Below, piece after piece: positions 1,601 to 19,242 of a DNA stretch of 48,419 nt. Source of the stretch: a virus (lineage: Duplodnaviria > Caudoviricetes). The stretch spans positions 1 to 48,419 of IMG/VR virus record IMGVR_UViG_3300050015_000776; one strand, given 5' to 3'. The notes under the pieces were generated by a model. That model saw nothing but the letters and a program-made list of their open reading frames with translations. It was not told where the DNA came from and did not search any database. Made by a program: the position numbers and the translations under genes. The first letter of the stretch is position 1. Each line of letters starts with the position of its first letter.

Positions 1601-1855
1601 TTAGAAGCCGAAATAAATGGGCCGCGGCGTGGGCGCGGCAGCGCTGCCAGTGGTCAGCATGGATTGGAGCGTCGAAATCCAGGCGTCGAGTTTCTCGAGG
1701 TCGCCCGCCGAGGAGCGATTGAATTCGACTTGCGCGCTTGGCCCATTGACGCGAACGATGGACTTGCCGGTGAGCAGGTCATGCTTGGCCTGCAGCGCCT
1801 CTGCGAGCCAGGTCGCGGCCTGGTCGAGCGAGAATCCAGACGGTGGCGTTGGCAT
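1601..1855 (-). CDS. Head-to-tail joining protein, gpW-like (84 aa)
   Basis: MPTPP...ALQAKHDLLTGKSIVRV...VEF...LDAWISTL...RPIYFGF matches the gpW pattern; TAATG overlap with the terminase stop. Confidence 0.85.
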   Translation of the reverse strand: MPTPPSGFSLDQAATWLAEALQAKHDLLTGKSIVRVNGPSAQVEFNRSSAGDLEKLDAWISTLQSMLTTGSAAAPTPRPIYFGF

Positions 1856-3795
1856 TAGAGGTAGGGATTGTCTGAGACGATCGGTTTGAACGCCGCGGCA
1901 TAGGCCGCCGGATCGCGGGCGGCTTGGTTCTGCCGGCCCGCGGGAGAGACAGACGCCGCGAGAGTCCGGACTCGCGCGACTTCCCGGTTCAGGGAGCTGG
2001 CGGAAGAGATTTGCCAGCCGATCAAAGCGGCATAGGCCTGGACATCGCAGTCGAGCATGTGATTGGCGGCGCCTGGCGAGCGCTTCTTCCATGCATATTT
2101 GGGCGTTGGGCCGGTGTAGTCGGGCACTCGCACTTCCGCGGTGAGCTGTTCGAAGTAATCCCGGTCGAACTCCGGCGCAAGCGGGAAGTGGATGGCGCCC
2201 GGGCCGGGTTCGCTCATGCGGAGGCGCGCGTAAATGCGCTCCTTGGCGACGTCGACGCCGATGATATTGGGCGGCGGGAATTTTCCGCGCGCCCTGCGGT
2301 TCTGAACCGCCCAGATGGGGCGGTTACCTTCGCGGCCTTTGGTCGCCCAGACACGCTTGCCTTTGCGCTCGCCGCAGAACTGCACCACTGTCTGGGTTTT
2401 GTAGCCTGAGTCGATGCAGACCGCCTTGACGCTCAGCTGCAGGCCCAGTTCCGAACACCGCTCTGCATGCAGCCAGGTCTCGAGCTGCTCCCAAGGCGAG
2501 AAGCGCTTGGGATCCTTGGATACCATCTCCGAGGTGTCGCCGAGGAACGACCGCCGCTCGAGGCGCCAGGACTCTTCGTCGGCGCCCCAGCCCACCAGTA
2601 CGGCGTCGATGCGTTCGGCGTGGACGTCGGCGCCAGCGGTCAGCACGGCGACCAAGGGCGGCAGCTCTGGCCCATAGGCCTCGCGCCGCGCGATTAGCGT
2701 GTCTGCGTCGGCGCGCGTCTCTGCGGGGTCGGAGTATGGCAGGCCCTGCTTGAGGTTGACGAAGGTCTTGCGTTTGACGGGGTCCTTGTGGACCTTCTCC
2801 CACTCGGCCGCCAGATTCAGCCAGGAGTTGCCTGGCCAGCCGTAAGGGTAATACAGCGCGTTGATCTGATAGGTGCGGATCTTCTGCGCGGCGCCGTTGC
2901 CGGGCGCCGAAGGAATCCACACGCCGTTCTGGAGCAGCGCGACCTTTTCCCACTCCTCGAATGTGCCGCCGCATTTTTCGCACTGGTAGCGGACCGAGGC
3001 CGGGTCGCCCTTATCCCAGCGCAGGCCTCCGAGGTCGCCGACACGCGCGCGGTCCTCCCCGAAGATCAGCGCTTGAAACGCTCCGCAACGCGGGCAGGGC
3101 AGGTGGAAATAGTTCTGATCACCCCGCTGAAACCACTCCCAGATCTGAGAGAGATGATAAAGCGTGGGCGTCGAAACCAGATACACCTTGCGGTTGCGAT
3201 AGCCAGCGGTCCGCTGCATGAACAGTTCGACCGACGAGCCCTCCTTGTTCAGGTCCACACGGAACGAATCGACCTCGTCCTGCACCTGGTAGCGGTAGGA
3301 ATCCGCCCTGGCGTCGGATGTGGACGCCGCGGTGCTGATTACCAGCTGCGAGTCGCCAAACTCCTTGAGCGTCGTGGTGTTCGAACTCCCCCGGGATCGC
3401 TTGGCCGAGACGATGTTCCGGAGAACTTCGTTTGCCTGGATCATCGGGTCCAGTCGGCGGCTGACGAATCGCCGGGCACTCTGGATCGAGCCCAGCACAT
3501 ATTGGATCGAATCGGGGTAGCGATGCATCCAGCAGCCGATCGCGTTAATGCCGCCCTCCGTCCCGGCGCCCTGCGCAGCCTTGGCGAGCACGATGATCTG
3601 TGCCGGGTCGGAGGGTGACAGCCGGTCCATCACTTCCTTCATATAGGGCACGCGCGACGTCCGCCAGAAGCCTGGCTCAGGGCTGGGTTTCGAGACGTAC
3701 CGGTAGCGGTCGGCCCATTCCGAGACGGTCATCTCGGGTTCGGGCCGGAAGCCGGCTACAAACGCGTCACTTACGATTTCCGTTACCGTTGACAT
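1855..3795 (-). CDS. Terminase large subunit, GpA family
   Basis: TVSEWAD..R, PY..EVMD, KAAQ Walker-A-like motif, DEVD Walker B, STPT, CPRCG...CEKCG zinc ribbon, nuclease GADV/IDSG/NHMLD. Confidence 0.95.
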   Translation of the reverse strand: MSTVTEIVSDAFVAGFRPEPEMTVSEWADRYRYVSKPSPEPGFWRTSRVPYMKEVMDRLSPSDPAQIIVLAKAAQGAGTEGGINAIGCWMHRYPDSIQYVLGSIQSARRFVSRRLDPMIQANEVLRNIVSAKRSRGSSNTTTLKEFGDSQLVISTAASTSDARADSYRYQVQDEVDSFRVDLNKEGSSVELFMQRTAGYRNRKVYLVSTPTLYHLSQIWEWFQRGDQNYFHLPCPRCGAFQALIFGEDRARVGDLGGLRWDKGDPASVRYQCEKCGGTFEEWEKVALLQNGVWIPSAPGNGAAQKIRTYQINALYYPYGWPGNSWLNLAAEWEKVHKDPVKRKTFVNLKQGLPYSDPAETRADADTLIARREAYGPELPPLVAVLTAGADVHAERIDAVLVGWGADEESWRLERRSFLGDTSEMVSKDPKRFSPWEQLETWLHAERCSELGLQLSVKAVCIDSGYKTQTVVQFCGERKGKRVWATKGREGNRPIWAVQNRRARGKFPPPNIIGVDVAKERIYARLRMSEPGPGAIHFPLAPEFDRDYFEQLTAEVRVPDYTGPTPKYAWKKRSPGAANHMLDCDVQAYAALIGWQISSASSLNREVARVRTLAASVSPAGRQNQAARDPAAYAAAFKPIVSDNPYL

Positions 3796-4411
3796 TTCCA
3801 AGCGACCCTAACTTCAGTGCAATCTCCGCGGCGATGCGCTCGTCTGTTACTCTCTTCTCGCGCCTCAGAATTGCTTCTATTTCGGCAACGTCCGTCTTGC
3901 CGACCAGCAGCGGCGCCAGTTGCGTGGGCCCGTTTTCACGATCTGCTGCAAGGATGCGTCCGATCGTTTGAAAGGTGGCGACGGCCTCTTCCACCTTGAC
4001 GACGGCTCCCATCTCGCGCTGCAGGCTGATCTGATCCTTGGCCACGCGAAGCCAGGCCGCCGTCCGCTCGGCCTCGGCCTTGGTCTTGCCGTCCGGCCGG
4101 TCTGGTTCACCTCGCCCGTTTCCTGGGCCGAACCGATTGCCGTTGCCATTGCCGCTGCCATTCCCGTTCCCGCTGTGAGCCTTTCCCTGCGCCTGGGGCT
4201 CCTGCTTGCCCCACCGTTTCGCGGAGTTCTGCGTCTGACGCGGGCTGCCGAGTTGCGCCCGCTTCCGATTCGCTTCCGACCGGCTGACCAGGCCATCCGC
4301 GCTTCGCCCGATGCCCAAAACCCTAACGCTCGTATTCGCGTTCTGGCGCGTGCACCCCCACTCTGCTGCAAGCCGAGCGACGGTTATAAGATCGTTTGAT
4401 GGGGTTGCCAC
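3767..4411 (-). CDS. Terminase small subunit (Nu1-like)
   Basis: N-terminal wHTH-like segment (VARLAAEWGCTRQ), GN-rich linker, helical C-terminus (LQREMGAVVKVEE); overlaps the large-subunit start. Confidence 0.8.
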   Translation of the reverse strand: MATPSNDLITVARLAAEWGCTRQNANTSVRVLGIGRSADGLVSRSEANRKRAQLGSPRQTQNSAKRWGKQEPQAQGKAHSGNGNGSGNGNGNRFGPGNGRGEPDRPDGKTKAEAERTAAWLRVAKDQISLQREMGAVVKVEEAVATFQTIGRILAADRENGPTQLAPLLVGKTDVAEIEAILRREKRVTDERIAAEIALKLGSLGNVNGNGNRK

Positions 4412-4414
4412 ATG

Positions 4415-5263
4415 CTATGCGCGCTCCTCTAAAAGCCGCAGTGCGTCGTCCTTGTCGTGGTCTTCGCGTTCCTGCATGCGGCCAAATTCAACATGTGCAA
4501 ACGTGGGGCCGTCCCCCTCGAGCGTTGCCTCGCGCCCGGTGAAGTTTTGCCAGCGGCGCACGATCACGTCGCAGTAGATCGGATCCAGTTCCATGAGCCT
4601 CGCCCGGCGCCCGGTCTTTTCACAGGCGATTAGCGTCGAGCCGGAGCCTGCAAAGAGATCCCCGACTATGTCACCGTTCCGGCTCGAGTTTTCGATCGCC
4701 CGAATTACCAGCGCAATCGGTTTCATGGTTCGGTGCAACCGGCTGGCCGCCGGCTTGGGTATTTGCCAGAGCGTCGACTCACTCTTGTCTCCGTACCAGG
4801 CGTCCGATTGGCCGGCGACGTGAACATAGAACATGGGCTCGTGCTGGAACTTATACCTTCCAAACCCCCAGGCGAAAGTGTTCTTCGCCCAAATGATCTG
4901 GCAACGGATCTCGAAACCGGCAGCCTCGAGCGCGTCCTGGAACTCACGTTGCCACGACGAGGAGTGGCACACATACATCGATCCATCCGTGCGCACCGCC
5001 GTGGCGCAGGATCGAAACGCAGCCAACAGGAAGATCCGGAACTGCTCGGGGGTCTTTTTGTCGCCTTGGATCTTTAACCTGTCGTCCGTATATCCTTCAT
5101 AATCAACGTTGTGGGGCGGATCAATGAACGCCAGATGCGCTTTTTCCCCGCACATCGCTCGCGACGCCTGTGCAGTGTCGGTCGCATCGCCGCACAACAG
5201 CGCGTGGCGAGGGCTCGGCTTCACGTTGAAGTCCAGCCCGCACTTCCAGCATTTGCACTTCAT
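4415..5263 (-). CDS. DNA N6A/N4C methyltransferase B (beta class) with N-terminal CxCxKC half-knuckle
   Basis: MKCKCWKCG...RHALLCGD, DPPH (motif IV variant), QIIWAK, HEP, DLFAGSGSTLIA, ELDPIYCDVIVRRWQ; ATGA overlap with the upstream MTase stop. Confidence 0.9.
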   Translation of the reverse strand: MKCKCWKCGLDFNVKPSPRHALLCGDATDTAQASRAMCGEKAHLAFIDPPHNVDYEGYTDDRLKIQGDKKTPEQFRIFLLAAFRSCATAVRTDGSMYVCHSSSWQREFQDALEAAGFEIRCQIIWAKNTFAWGFGRYKFQHEPMFYVHVAGQSDAWYGDKSESTLWQIPKPAASRLHRTMKPIALVIRAIENSSRNGDIVGDLFAGSGSTLIACEKTGRRARLMELDPIYCDVIVRRWQNFTGREATLEGDGPTFAHVEFGRMQEREDHDKDDALRLLEERA

Positions 5264-6252
5264 GCTATGGCCTCGACCGGAGCCTGGAATCTTTCCTCTG
5301 CGACCTGGTCGAACGTCTGGCCGGTTGCCGCCAGTGTGATGGAGCAGGCGCCCAGACGAGATAGGCGTTCGAGAATTACGTCGCAGTATGCCGGCGAGAT
5401 CTCGCAGCCGAACCCGGCGCGGCCCAGCAGGTGCGCGGCTGCCATGGTAGTGCCGCTGCCCATGAACGGGTCGTAAACGGTGTCGCCGGCGTCTGAGTAT
5501 GCATTCAAGAAGAACTCGACCAGCATCCGCGGGAACTGCGCGGAGTGCGATCCCTGCGTTGACTCGCTCTTGCATTCGATCACGTTCGATGGCCGCGCAA
5601 TGTCCACGAAACGGCGGTCGCTGTCGCCGGCGTCCTGCTTTCCTGCAGCAGAGCCGCGCGCTCCTGTGCCCAGCAGCCCGCTACCCGACGTCGACTTCGG
5701 ATTGTCCGGCGAGTAGTTGAAGCAGTCCTCCGAGACGTGGCCCACCGCTTTCGGCCGAAACTTGATCTCCGCCTGCCGGCAGAAGTGAAAGACCGGCTCG
5801 TGCGCGTTCTTGAACCGGTTGGGCCAGCCGCCGGGGACGCCATTGTCGGGTTTGCGCCACAATAGATCGTCAACGAAGCGCCAGCCCCACCGCCGCTTGT
5901 GTGCGATTACCAGGTCCATCACATAGAGGCTGCGTTCGCCATCCTTGGCGTGGGCTTTGATATTGAGGAAATAGGAGCCGTCCGGCGCCAGGTGCGAGGC
6001 GATGATCTCGGCCACCGCGCCGTACCACTCGATGTATTCGTCCACCGGGACGGGCTTGAAGCCGCTCGATGCATCGTATTCGCGCTGCGATGCATAAGGC
6101 TGCGAGGTGATCACGACGTTTGCGCGCGTCCCGTCGAAGAGTCGATCGACCTGCTTTGGATCGCGGCAGTCGCCGCATAGCAACCGGTGGCGCGGAGGCA
6201 CGATCGCCTCGAGCGAGCGGTGACACTTCCTGCAGGTACAGTCAAACATCAT
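5260..6252 (-). CDS. DNA N4C/N6A methyltransferase A (beta class) with N-terminal CxCxKC half-knuckle
   Basis: MMFDCTCRKCH...RHRLLCGD, TSQPY (motif IV variant), HEPVFHF, DPFMGSGTT, EISPAYCDVI; start overlaps the ParB stop. Confidence 0.9.
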   Translation of the reverse strand: MMFDCTCRKCHRSLEAIVPPRHRLLCGDCRDPKQVDRLFDGTRANVVITSQPYASQREYDASSGFKPVPVDEYIEWYGAVAEIIASHLAPDGSYFLNIKAHAKDGERSLYVMDLVIAHKRRWGWRFVDDLLWRKPDNGVPGGWPNRFKNAHEPVFHFCRQAEIKFRPKAVGHVSEDCFNYSPDNPKSTSGSGLLGTGARGSAAGKQDAGDSDRRFVDIARPSNVIECKSESTQGSHSAQFPRMLVEFFLNAYSDAGDTVYDPFMGSGTTMAAAHLLGRAGFGCEISPAYCDVILERLSRLGACSITLAATGQTFDQVAEERFQAPVEAIA

Positions 6253-6817
6253 TCTCCGTGCCGCAGTGCGGACAGATGACTCGCGAGCCAAGGAGCCACA
6301 GATCGCCAGGCCGCGTGACCGGGTTCTCCTTCGGTTCCGGAACCGCATCGTCTGCCGTTGCGCCCTCGCTGGCGCTGTCGCTTTGAAGTCCCCGCAGCAG
6401 ATCGTCGAGAGACTCGATGTCGAACCCCGTGCCGAGGAGCGTTCCGGCCTCCGCCTGAACTTCCTGCAGGAGCTGGGCCAGCGCGGCGTCGTCATAGCCG
6501 GCCAGATCGTTCGTGCGATTGTCGACGAGCAAGATCCGGAGGGCCTCTGCATCGTCGCAATCGACATAAATGACCGGGACGACCGGCAGTCCGCACTCCC
6601 GGGCGGCGAGCCAGCGGTGGTTGCCCGCCAGAATGTTCCCCGTGGAACGTTGCACTACGCAAGCGCCGAAGAATTGATTGGACTTAATCGATGCAATGAT
6701 CGCGTTCACGTCGCCCTGCCGCGGGTTCCGTGGGTGTGGCTGGATCGCCGCGATGGACACCAGCTCATACTGCTGGTCGCGGATCCCTACAGACTTGTTC
6801 GGTTTGGTTTTCGCCAT
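6242..6817 (-). CDS. ParB/Srx N-terminal-domain protein ending in a CPHCG half-knuckle
   Basis: PHPRNPR, ILAGNHRWLAA, DNRTNDLAGYD, LLGTGFD, DDAVPE..TRPGDLWLLG, then SRVICPHCGTENDV-stop. Confidence 0.9.
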   Translation of the reverse strand: MAKTKPNKSVGIRDQQYELVSIAAIQPHPRNPRQGDVNAIIASIKSNQFFGACVVQRSTGNILAGNHRWLAARECGLPVVPVIYVDCDDAEALRILLVDNRTNDLAGYDDAALAQLLQEVQAEAGTLLGTGFDIESLDDLLRGLQSDSASEGATADDAVPEPKENPVTRPGDLWLLGSRVICPHCGTENDV

Positions 6818-6923
6818 GCTGTTCAGCTCATGCCGCGAGGAAGATCCGGCTTTGGCTTGCAATCAACGTCGGATCTGAGTGATCGATGTGGGGTACGAGT
6901 TCGCTCGAAAGGTTCAAAACTCT

Positions 6924-7352
6924 ATGAAACTCAGTTCCAAACGCACGCCGTCGGCGCCGTTCGCCGGCCCCGCAGACGCACAGACGGCCACAGACGCGCC
7001 GCCGACCGCCAAGTCTAAGGGCAACGCCAGGAAGGGCAGCCAGACGCCGCCCAAGCCCACGGGCGCCAGCAGGAAGGCCACCAAGAAGGAAGCAGAGCCT
7101 GCCAAAGCAGCCAAAACGCTCGTTAAACGCGAGAAAAAGGAGCCGGCCGCTCCGCGCGAGGGCAACAAGACTGCGATGATTCTGGCGCTTCTGCGCCGCC
7201 AGGAGGGCGCCAAACTCACGGAAATCATGCAGCAGGCCGGCTGGCAGAAGCACTCCGTGCGCGGCTTCATCTCGAGCCAGGGTAAGAAGGGCGTCGTGAT
7301 CCGGTCCTTTAAGAACGAAACTGGCGAACGGTGCTACCAGATCGCAGAGTAA
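6924..7352 (+). CDS. DUF3489-family wHTH protein (moron)
   Basis: PREGNKTAMILALLRRQEGA..EIMQQAGWQKHSVRGFIS...ERCYQI signature after a Lys/Ala-rich N-terminus. Confidence 0.88.
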   Translation: MKLSSKRTPSAPFAGPADAQTATDAPPTAKSKGNARKGSQTPPKPTGASRKATKKEAEPAKAAKTLVKREKKEPAAPREGNKTAMILALLRRQEGAKLTEIMQQAGWQKHSVRGFISSQGKKGVVIRSFKNETGERCYQIAE

Positions 7353-10591: not shown

Positions 10592-10903
10592 TTATCTGTT
10601 CCACCAATACTCGCGCCGGGCCTTGCTATTTCGCGCAGGCTTCGCGGGCCCGCGCTTATCCTTCCGCTTGCGAGGCAGCGGCCGGCAGGTGCAGGGGCAA
10701 CTTTCTATGCAGACCACGCCCTCGTTCTCCGGGCGCCAGTCCAGCGGCGACGTCGGTAAGTGCTTCGACAGCTCCACATATTGGGCCTCGCTGAGCACCA
10801 CCGCCCGCAACTTCAGCAGCTTGCCGTCAGGCTGCCGGCGGATCGGCCGCAGCGTGTAAATCATGCGGTGCCCGTGACCATCGCAGAGAATGCATTTCGG
10901 CAT
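10592..10903 (-). CDS. Zn-binding hypothetical protein
   Basis: CILCDGHG...CPCTC; TAATG coupling to the replication gene. Confidence 0.65.
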   Translation of the reverse strand: MPKCILCDGHGHRMIYTLRPIRRQPDGKLLKLRAVVLSEAQYVELSKHLPTSPLDWRPENEGVVCIESCPCTCRPLPRKRKDKRGPAKPARNSKARREYWWNR

Positions 10904-11907
10904 TAAACACCCCCAGGCAGCCAGCTCTGTTCCGGACCTTTGCGCGTCCCCTCTGCTTGCGCCAGATGAGCAAACCATTTCCATCCTCGCGCGCCGCCGC
11001 CCTGCTTGGCCTTGCATTTCTCGTGGATCCAATCGTCGAAATCCTGGACGGTTGCGAAGTAGGCGCCGACCTCTAGGCAAATAGCCTCATCCGGGTAGCG
11101 AGCCGGTCCGTTCTGCAAATTCCCGGCATGAGTCCGAATCTCGACGAGGCATTCGGCGATGTGGTTCCAGTGCTGCTCCCACCACGGCTGCGTTCCGTTC
11201 GCTGCTTTTGCAGTCCCGTTTCGCGGCGGCGGCGGCGGCGTAACAACCTTCGGACCCTCTTCGCCGCCGCTGTACGGAGACGGAGACGGAGACGGAGACG
11301 GAGACGGAGACGGAGACGGAGGGGGCGTACACTGGGCGTCGCGCTCAGCGTCCGGCGATACGCTGATTCCAGAAGAGTTACGGTATTTTCTAGCGTTTGT
11401 TCGCCCTATCTTTCCGTCGCGAAAGAAACCATTTTCGCTATTTTTTTCTATCGTGTTTCGCTTTTCCTTTGGTTCGGTTTGGTCCTCCGTGCCGATGCCG
11501 CCGGAGGTTGCTGACCCTTCGCCAGCGTCACGCTCGGCGTCACGCTGCGCCTGCGCTGATCGCTCCGCTTGGCGCTTCGCTGCGCGTTTCCGATTGGTCT
11601 CTTCGGCGCCGCGCCTCCGGTCCTCTTTAGACTGCAAAACGCTCGGACGCTTTTCATCCACTTTTTTGTTGTGAAGCCGTCCGTCCACCGCGAAGAAGCA
11701 CTTCGATACCACAGGCCACGCCCTCTTAAATTCTTTCGAATCGCACATGGCCAAACGGCACAGCGTGTTCTCATCTGCAGGCAGGCTGCCTTGATCCCAG
11801 CAGATATCCAAGAGGTCGCGATACACGCCACGCTGCTCTGCGCTCATCGCGAGCACGGCGGTGTCCTGGCGCCAGTTGGATATGTACCACGGGTAACTCT
11901 GCATCAT
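10903..11907 (-). CDS. Replication initiator, DUF1376/YdaU-like
   Basis: YPWYISNWRQDT..MSAEQRGVYRDLLDICWDQGSLP...DGRLHNKKV, then a low-complexity linker and (SP)n tract. Confidence 0.8.
   Translation of the reverse strand: MMQSYPWYISNWRQDTAVLAMSAEQRGVYRDLLDICWDQGSLPADENTLCRLAMCDSKEFKRAWPVVSKCFFAVDGRLHNKKVDEKRPSVLQSKEDRRRGAEETNRKRAAKRQAERSAQAQRDAERDAGEGSATSGGIGTEDQTEPKEKRNTIEKNSENGFFRDGKIGRTNARKYRNSSGISVSPDAERDAQCTPPPSPSPSPSPSPSPSPYSGGEEGPKVVTPPPPPRNGTAKAANGTQPWWEQHWNHIAECLVEIRTHAGNLQNGPARYPDEAICLEVGAYFATVQDFDDWIHEKCKAKQGGGARGWKWFAHLAQAEGTRKGPEQSWLPGGV
11274..11321. repeat. (ACGGAG)8 microsatellite encoding a Ser-Pro tract
   Basis: Seen directly in the sequence. Confidence 0.9.
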
Positions 11908-12230
11908 GCCGCTCCGCCTCCTGCAGCTTTGAACACCGTCTTCATGCGTGCGTCCAGCTCGCGCACGAGCGCCGCCTTGGTCGGCCGGTGCGCGCACAGG
12001 CGCCAGCTGAGCAGCTCGTATATCACAACCGAGCAGCTCGAGCAGAGGTCGCCGCGCGCGTCCGTCGGATCCCAGAAGCAAGGCGGGTTACATGGCTCGC
12101 GGTCTGTGCAGCGGCAGACCCTGCACCGCAGAAGCCCGTCCCGATCGTGCAGGTACTTCGGCCTCGCCGCTGGCTCGTTCCCCTTCTTCTGCCGGCGCCC
12201 ACGTTTATTTGCTTGCGTAAAATGCCGCCT
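11904..12230 (-). pseudogene. Cys-rich Zn-finger reading frame without an in-frame canonical start codon near its 5' end
   Basis: Frame encodes CRVCRCTDREPCNPPCFW...DLCSSC and its TGA overlaps the replication ATG. The nearby GTG (12202) is out of frame by one base. Confidence 0.6.

Positions 12231-18381: not shown

Positions 18382-19217
<836 letters not shown>

Positions 19218-19242
<25 letters not shown>

Follow-up and report, generated by a model that had tools for sequence, protein, structure and literature searches.

The 48.4 kb virus record IMGVR_UViG_3300050015_000776 (hereafter the window, meaning the whole stretch that was analysed) carries the gene of a ParB-like subunit, P0001, followed by the genes of two β-class N6/N4 methyltransferases, A and B. 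These genes are the separated pieces of a ParB–N6/N4 methyltransferase, with cysteine motifs added on both sides of the cut. The enzyme was probably cut inside a zinc ribbon seated in the turn of a predicted β-hairpin, and the pieces probably rejoin with a zinc ion shared by both chains such that one ParB docks either enzyme. The split form is a real and widespread variant of the ParB–methyltransferase enzyme, while the docking mechanism is well-constrained but unproven. ParB–N6/N4 fusions (PF02195 + PF01555) of the ParB-Tls locus have been described as frequent in phages (PMC12704722, PMC6536676) and both the fusions and the locus are also in print elsewhere (PMC4738411).

A ParB–methyltransferase in pieces

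P0001 matches positions 28-205 of the PHROG profile phrog_498 and both methyltransferases match the same profile from position 200. Since these matches are adjacent, the ParB represents one half of a one-piece phage ParB–N6/N4 methyltransferase and the methyltransferases the other. The ParB/Srx G-x-H-R motif is present in the ParB as AGNHR. The ParB ends in GDLWLLG-x4-CPHC-x6-stop, and the N-terminal heads of A and B each contain C-x-C-x2-C, with 11 residues leading from the last cysteine to H-x-LLCGD. The original prediction for this DNA had placed the cut between DLWLLG and H-x-LLCGD, and its three reading frames and this cut are as it described. It had also assigned one CxxC to each added peptide, which is right for the ParB tail (two cysteines) and wrong for the heads (three cysteines each). 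The core of A is 77% identical to the fused gene in locus L020 and the core of B is 68% identical to the fused gene in L050, whereas A and B are 25% identical to one another. The core fold of B, taken from an AlphaFold2 (AF2) model, matches those of CcrM, M1.HpyAVI, and M.MboII.

Motif IV is atypical in both enzymes. It reads SQPY in A (window 6094-6105, minus strand) and DPPH in B (5111-5122, minus strand), each occurring in one of 108 cores and each with its letters unchanged in independent contigs; in addition, B reads HRT at the place of the family's HPT. The canonical (D/S/N)PP(Y/F/W) motif is thus absent from A and B, but the close relative L003 (87% identical) has SPPY and DPPY, which makes it a better test case than the window enzymes. 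Two conserved columns are broken in each of A and B, which is within the family range. The earlier description of the enzymes holds, but this departure in motif IV had escaped it.

The structural position of the cut was examined in the fused homologue L050. In the AF2 model of its linker and core the linker is ordered, and strands at residues 27-30 and 33-37 (LWLL and HRVLC) are joined by a two-residue turn, with a predicted local distance difference test (pLDDT) score of 92-98. The cut falls at the turn of this predicted β-hairpin. In 113 plain fused rows (not dereplicated) the cut point is occupied only by a turn of at most four residues. In the AF2 model of B the head forms a small hairpin from strands 2-4 and 11-13 (pLDDT 84-89), the turn of which contains C5 and C8, and the ParB tail matches, below the cut-off, the first half of several zinc-ribbon profiles (among them DUF7577, positions 2-13 of 27, and Zn_Ribbon_1, positions 2-10 of 23). 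In sequence searches neither the head nor the GDLWLLG strand matched a solved structure. L050 also encodes a stand-alone A-type methyltransferase without ParB or Cys head (L050:1502-2464), directly before the fused ParB-B gene (2425-3753).

A stop codon and a frame change at 6242-6252 separate the ParB from A, and no single polypeptide frame runs through the two. The ParB and A genes overlap by 8 nt counted from the second ATG of A or 11 nt from the first, and the A and B genes overlap by 4 nt (ATGA). These overlaps suggest translational coupling of the three genes; the original prediction had stated the coupling outright, and the overlaps are the part of that statement that was seen. The same three proteins are encoded in two further IMG/VR contigs; no RNA data set was listed as containing this DNA. 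Additionally, contigs from other runs span the ParB/A junction (X10, 5699-6393) and the A/B junction (X8, 4382-5570) with 0 differences; since other contigs carry identical junctions, the junctions are real DNA and not assembly errors. A continuous ParB–methyltransferase frame in the reads, which had been named as the observation that would speak against a split, was not found, and the bridging contigs show the same junctions.

Tails and heads across relatives

A DNA pattern for the ParB tail gave 53 viral, 99 genome, and at least 119 metagenome stretches (26 of 64 metagenome parts covered), a sample that is biased to W-x-L-G-x4-CPxC tails. A linker filter rejected 86 of the 99 genome and 50 of the 119 metagenome stretches as unrelated; it also dropped 7 true loci, which were added back to give 96 distinct loci. 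At least 124 loci have a true linker, with at least 89 distinct ParB tails. Among the matches listed, none of the 124 tail loci continues in frame into a methyltransferase, and of the 108 cores that lie downstream of a tail 106 have a Cys head, the exceptions being a frameshifted copy and a false motif. Again among the matches listed, the 43 distinct loci for which 2.1 kb or more of downstream sequence is available have two methyltransferases in 28 cases, three in 2, one in 10, and none in 3, as counted with a regular expression that undercounts. The head follows the cut within 60 nt in 68 of the 96 distinct loci. In the reverse direction a head scan gave 53 distinct matches, 50 of them methyltransferases, each of which has a tail no more than 2.6 kb upstream; an earlier head pattern, whose matches were mostly chance, was dropped.

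The tail-head pattern is beyond chance and the split form is a family, not an accident. The genome search for co-occurrence that the original prediction had proposed thus found tails and heads conserved and paired both ways, and its argument that the same adaptor on two paralogues speaks against an accidental break is borne out by dozens of tail-head loci. Its pairing of one ParB gene with several methyltransferase genes is likewise seen in 30 of the 43 longer distinct loci (among the matches listed). Three cysteines are present in 69 of 77 heads of relatives (the third at position -5 in 86%), and the spacing from the last cysteine to the histidine is 11 residues in 59 of the 77. The tail Cys codons vary synonymously, with TGC and TGT in all four combinations.

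A quick tree, which carries long-branch warnings, was made of the 136 catalytic cores left after dereplication of 163. Split cores interleave with fused relatives and there are 19 changes of the split/fused label, of which at least 12 fall on well-supported branches, so the head is portable across cores. Tandem double fusions, A-type plus B-type, are present in 12 of 97 loci counted in related phages, and we infer that the split form would serve the same A/B pair with one ParB, replacing the tandem ParB-A and ParB-B fusions. When ParB and core similarity are allowed for, tail similarity is associated with head similarity (partial Mantel 0.58, 28 loci), and the net charges of tail and head are opposite (Spearman -0.81, 58 loci; -1 for the tail and +2 for the head in the window). 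These similarity and charge results are only suggestive.

The 13 genome loci come from assemblies labelled Planctomycetota, Acidobacteriota, Lentisphaerota, Armatimonadota, and Parcubacteria. The closest ParB to that of the window among the matches listed (68%) is from a Bryobacteraceae assembly, which is a host hint only. When the tail profile was run against 1.84 billion cluster representatives, the best 150 matches comprised ~82 two-Cys and ~22 four-Cys C-terminal tails (counted by eye), 30 plain fusions, and 16 others. The type I tail, the two-Cys form of the window, had no match in 50,697 GenBank phage records with a 41-residue query of low sensitivity, and a further search listed only ordinary ParB matches. 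Short-region protein searches returned P0001 and P0004 only, none among longer proteins, and the ribbon query returned only P0005 (described below); these searches are word-based and give weak evidence of absence. The terminase and DUF3489 proteins of the window matched only 1-3 of 21 long loci, so adjacency to the terminase is not established across the split family.

Several variants accompany the family. Stand-alone ParBs close to P0001 (L005, L008, L009, and L011) end in CPxCG without a DLWxLG strand and could have supplied the tail; the ParB of L011 is followed by a C5-type methyltransferase, assigned by motif. In the ParBs P0077 and P0104 the tail is a C-x-C variant and the frame continues beyond it, in P0104 into an HNH-like C-terminus, which may reflect lost stops or gene-calling errors. 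In-frame read-on tails are also present in P0019, L402, L450, L421, L464, L480, and L499; P0019 passes from tail to head and then loses frame, and several of the others look like chimeric or error-prone assemblies. The first methyltransferase is damaged or degenerate in L273, L428, L467, and L246, with a 5'-deleted remnant, TAPP in place of motif IV, and frameshifts.

The proposed zinc ribbon and competing explanations

A scan without the proline requirement identified P0005 (451 amino acids, ParB + N6_N4_Mtase, 13 contigs), which is the full-length form of the L596 gene (L596:1657-2706, minus strand). P0005 contains LG-x4-CxxCG...CxxCG-x8-HRLLCGD in one chain, that is, a complete four-Cys ribbon in the position of the hairpin turn, with the same four-residue spacer ahead of the first cysteine as in the split ParB tails. 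Its alignments to P0001 (38%) and P0003 (55%) run from end to end, and its structure Atlas model gave family-level matches only. The two halves are in register with a single ribbon, whether P0005 is an ancestor or a re-fusion. The same scan identified a second type of split (type II) in 27 loci, 21 of them distinct (Table 1). In type II all four cysteines are on the ParB tail, which is acidic (mean charge -3.4), and the methyltransferase heads are short and basic (mean +2.9), with cysteine in 1 of 37 nine-residue windows. Type II loci have one to three methyltransferases, with two or three in 15 of the 21 distinct loci. These arrangements suggest that the turn first acquired a ribbon, which was later cut at either of two points, giving types I and II.

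In the proposed mechanism the last 40 residues of the ParB would lie on the methyltransferase as predicted for the fusion, and GDLWLLG would pair with H-x-LLCGD by strand complementation. One zinc ion bound by two cysteines from each chain (ParB CPxC and methyltransferase CxxC) would then close the cut, and one ParB would be shared by two or three enzymes. A model in which a single ribbon is cut between its two knuckles and a hairpin is cut at the turn appears better than a Rad50-like hook. The role of the enzyme may be the marking of phage DNA at packaging or anti-restriction, by analogy with the ParB-Tls literature, where it is putative too. A broader proposal, which we put forward tentatively as somewhat doubtful, is that the split ribbon is a portable, charge-coded connector: phages would swap cores, the ParB, as a nucleotide-binding scaffold, would load two or three methyltransferases (possibly A and B together on a ParB dimer), lineages would have orthogonal socket–plug pairs, and the ribbon would have been cut at two points to the same end.

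A number of observations weigh against shared-zinc docking or weaken its support. The zinc-bridged ParB:methyltransferase complex is something that we infer, and the ParB tail in the window supplies two cysteines and each head three, so that with a third cysteine in most heads another ligand set is possible. The atypical motif IV indicates that A and B may be weakened. P0005 is the one clear one-piece ribbon protein found, and its position on the tree does not separate an ancestor from a re-fusion. In alignment A1 the tail motif is invariant, but this is circular evidence because the scan selected for the motif. The charge pairing comes down to 3 independent well-supported contrasts with a non-significant sign test, the Mantel test leaves shared ancestry and linkage in, and a ParB's own second heads rank no better than its own second cores.

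It is conceivable, if unlikely, that the pieces join by β-strand or linker complementation and charge pairing, with the zinc held within one chain or a homodimer and not as the bridge, for example by the three head cysteines plus a histidine or plus a cysteine of the other methyltransferase protomer. The third head cysteine may be a packing residue or a zinc ligand; as a possible ligand, present in most heads, it keeps this explanation alive. Type II loci dock Cys-free heads, indicating that an intermolecular zinc site is not required for the architecture, and the tails of the split phage enzyme Aeh1 NrdA are described as unnecessary for its heterodimer (PMC3045599). However, the split of the type I cysteine pairs corresponds exactly to the one-chain ribbon of P0005, the two-Cys ParB tail has no complete site of its own, and CxxC heads were never seen without such a tail (50 of 50).

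An arrangement in which the half-sites homodimerise like the Rad50 hook, giving ParB2-Zn and MTase2-Zn (MTase, methyltransferase) that are co-expressed and do not bind through their tails, is improbable. β-class methyltransferases are often dimers, and the stand-alone phage ParBs of L005, L008, and L011 end in CPxCG, which we take to be a hook-type motif, without a DLWxLG strand, but homodimers leave unexplained the strict two-way co-occurrence, the fixed registers on both sides of the cut, and the one-chain ribbon, as well as the opposite charges, which are suggestive only. A programmed +1 frameshift or bypass that yields a one-chain ParB-A with a full ribbon, with B working alone, is more improbable still. 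The frame of A in the window is open for 464 codons, far into the ParB, which means that the two might in principle be joined by a +1 shift, and P0005 shows the fused ribbon to be viable. Against a frameshift, the phase of the neighbouring methyltransferase is not constant among the matches listed (+1 in 28 distinct loci, +2 in 33, and 0 in 1). A frameshift also fits poorly with the gap of up to ~800 nt filled by nuclease genes or a remnant in 8 of the 96 loci and with the second and third methyltransferases, which carry the same head 0.7-1.9 kb downstream.

These nuclease-bearing loci bear on a further explanation, in which the tails are functionless scars of homing-endonuclease insertion in a decaying locus. 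The cut is occupied by an HNH or DUF559-like gene or remnant, on either strand, in 8 of the 96 distinct loci (Table 1), and one of the free-standing HNH genes is reversed. No endonuclease gene is present in the ParB/A cut of the window. The atypical motif IV of both window enzymes and the damaged first methyltransferases of L246, L273, and L467 would fit with decay, but the synonymous variation of the tail Cys codons and the persistence of the heads on cores that are only ~32% identical within a locus (median) would not, and we consider the scar explanation scarcely credible. The inserted HNH proteins begin with CxxC-x3-F, which resembles the heads; a derivation of the heads from their N-termini was not supported, as none of the three tested was in the top 60 head-profile scores, which also speaks against scars. 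The cut may have been made by a nuclease, in the way that mobE cut Aeh1 nrdA, or may have been colonised by one later, two events that these data leave unordered. A split intein was rejected: the added tail has 14 residues and the heads 19-21, and no intein family was detected in the Pfam and PHROG scans.

The coordinates of the features discussed are collected in Table 1. Pfam and PHROG scans of the window also identified integrase, portal, major head, and terminase genes. An open reading frame at 18382-19242 (minus strand) contains a long Gly-Ser/Gly-Tyr repeat, and a primosomal-type protein with a Pro-Ser repeat is encoded at 10903-12081 (minus strand).

Table 1. Positions of the split enzyme and neighbouring genes in the window, nuclease genes in the cut of relatives, and type II loci.
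Feature	Position	Strand	Evidence or remark
ParB-like subunit P0001, 191 amino acids	6242..6817	-	ParB_N domain, acidic linker, GDLWLLG strand, Cys tail; PF02195 E 1e-8; phrog_498 positions 28-205
GDLWLLG, predicted first hairpin strand	6287..6307	-	continuous with H-x-LLCGD in one-piece relatives; AF2 model of fused L050
ParB tail x4-CPHC-x6, proposed first zinc knuckle (C182, C185)	6245..6286	-	half-ribbon profile matches below cut-off; kept in relatives
Methyltransferase A, SPPY-type β-class N6/N4, motif IV SQPY	5260..6249	-	PF01555 E 2e-34; alternative in-frame ATG at 6252
Head of A, C-x-C-x2-C + 11 residues to H, proposed second zinc knuckle	6190..6249	-	sequence; conserved register
Methyltransferase B, DPPY-type β-class N6/N4, motif IV DPPH	4415..5263	-	PF01555 E 2e-22; fold matches
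Head of B, C-x-C-x2-C + 11 residues to H	5207..5263	-	AF2 hairpin
Terminase small subunit	3767..4411	-	phrog_57; starts 3 nt past the B stop; ParB-Tls locus context
Terminase large subunit, gpA type	1855..3801	-	PF05876, PF20454
DUF3489 gene, divergent, upstream of ParB	6879..7352	+	PF11994 E 2e-18
HNH gene in the cut	L372:2817-3449, L422:356-850		Pfam
HNH gene in the cut	L495, L274, L500		motif; L500 an internally deleted remnant
DUF559-like nuclease gene in the cut	L294, L457, L428	reversed	motif
Type II split loci	L578, L579, L582, L584, L586-L589, L595, L601, L603, L606-L608, L610, L611, L615, L617, L619, L620, L626, L634, L639, L641-L644; L465

Relation to known systems

The window system resembles the one-piece ParB–N6/N4 methyltransferases (phrog_498) in having the same two domains in the same order before the terminase genes, with cores that are 68-77% identical. 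It differs from them in being split at the hairpin turn, in the added Cys half-knuckles, and in having one ParB gene for two or three methyltransferase genes. Lacking the single chain, it falls outside the one-piece family but probably works like it. The word "split" is absent from the main text of PMC12704722, and literature searches, with most subscription papers and all supplements outside their scope, returned no description of this ParB/methyltransferase split.

A phage enzyme in two pieces is known from Aeh1, in which the nrdA gene is cut into NrdA-a and NrdA-b, having a homing endonuclease in the cut and oppositely charged new tails that rescue the enzyme (PMC3045599). The likeness extends to the new C- and N-terminal tails and their opposite charge, whereas the Aeh1 tails are not zinc motifs (the term "zinc" does not occur in the available text), are not needed for the heterodimer, and form one pair only (PMC3045599). 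Here a single socket would take several plugs, and a nuclease is absent from the cut in most loci.

The Rad50 zinc hook has a zinc site common to two chains. A heterodimeric zinc site between two chains is also known from the CD4/CD8α–Lck zinc clasp (PMC12198760). The likeness to both is in the proposed shared zinc site, with no sequence homology claimed and with the zinc binding putative here; unlike them, the present system resembles one rubredoxin-type ribbon cut between its knuckles, and it has a one-chain relative. In the 5mYOX/ParB T-dioxygenases a separate phage ParB without a DNA-binding domain activates its cognate DNA-modifying enzyme (PMC13229309). That enzyme is a different one, no stable complex was trapped, and neither "zinc" nor "CxxC" occurs in the available text (PMC13229309).

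A targeting function of the ParB domain during packaging is only a proposal for the phage fusions (PMC6536676, citing earlier work). As the natural split separates the ParB from the methyltransferase, a direct test is possible of whether the methyltransferase is activated or directed by the ParB, and by its nucleotide. If the docking is real, these phages would have a prokaryotic heterodimeric zinc connector with fewer than 20 residues on each side, for which dozens of cognate pairs exist in nature and a one-chain protein serves as reference. Such a connector could supply orthogonal heterodimerisation tags, and it would bear on how gene fission becomes harmless and is then exploited.

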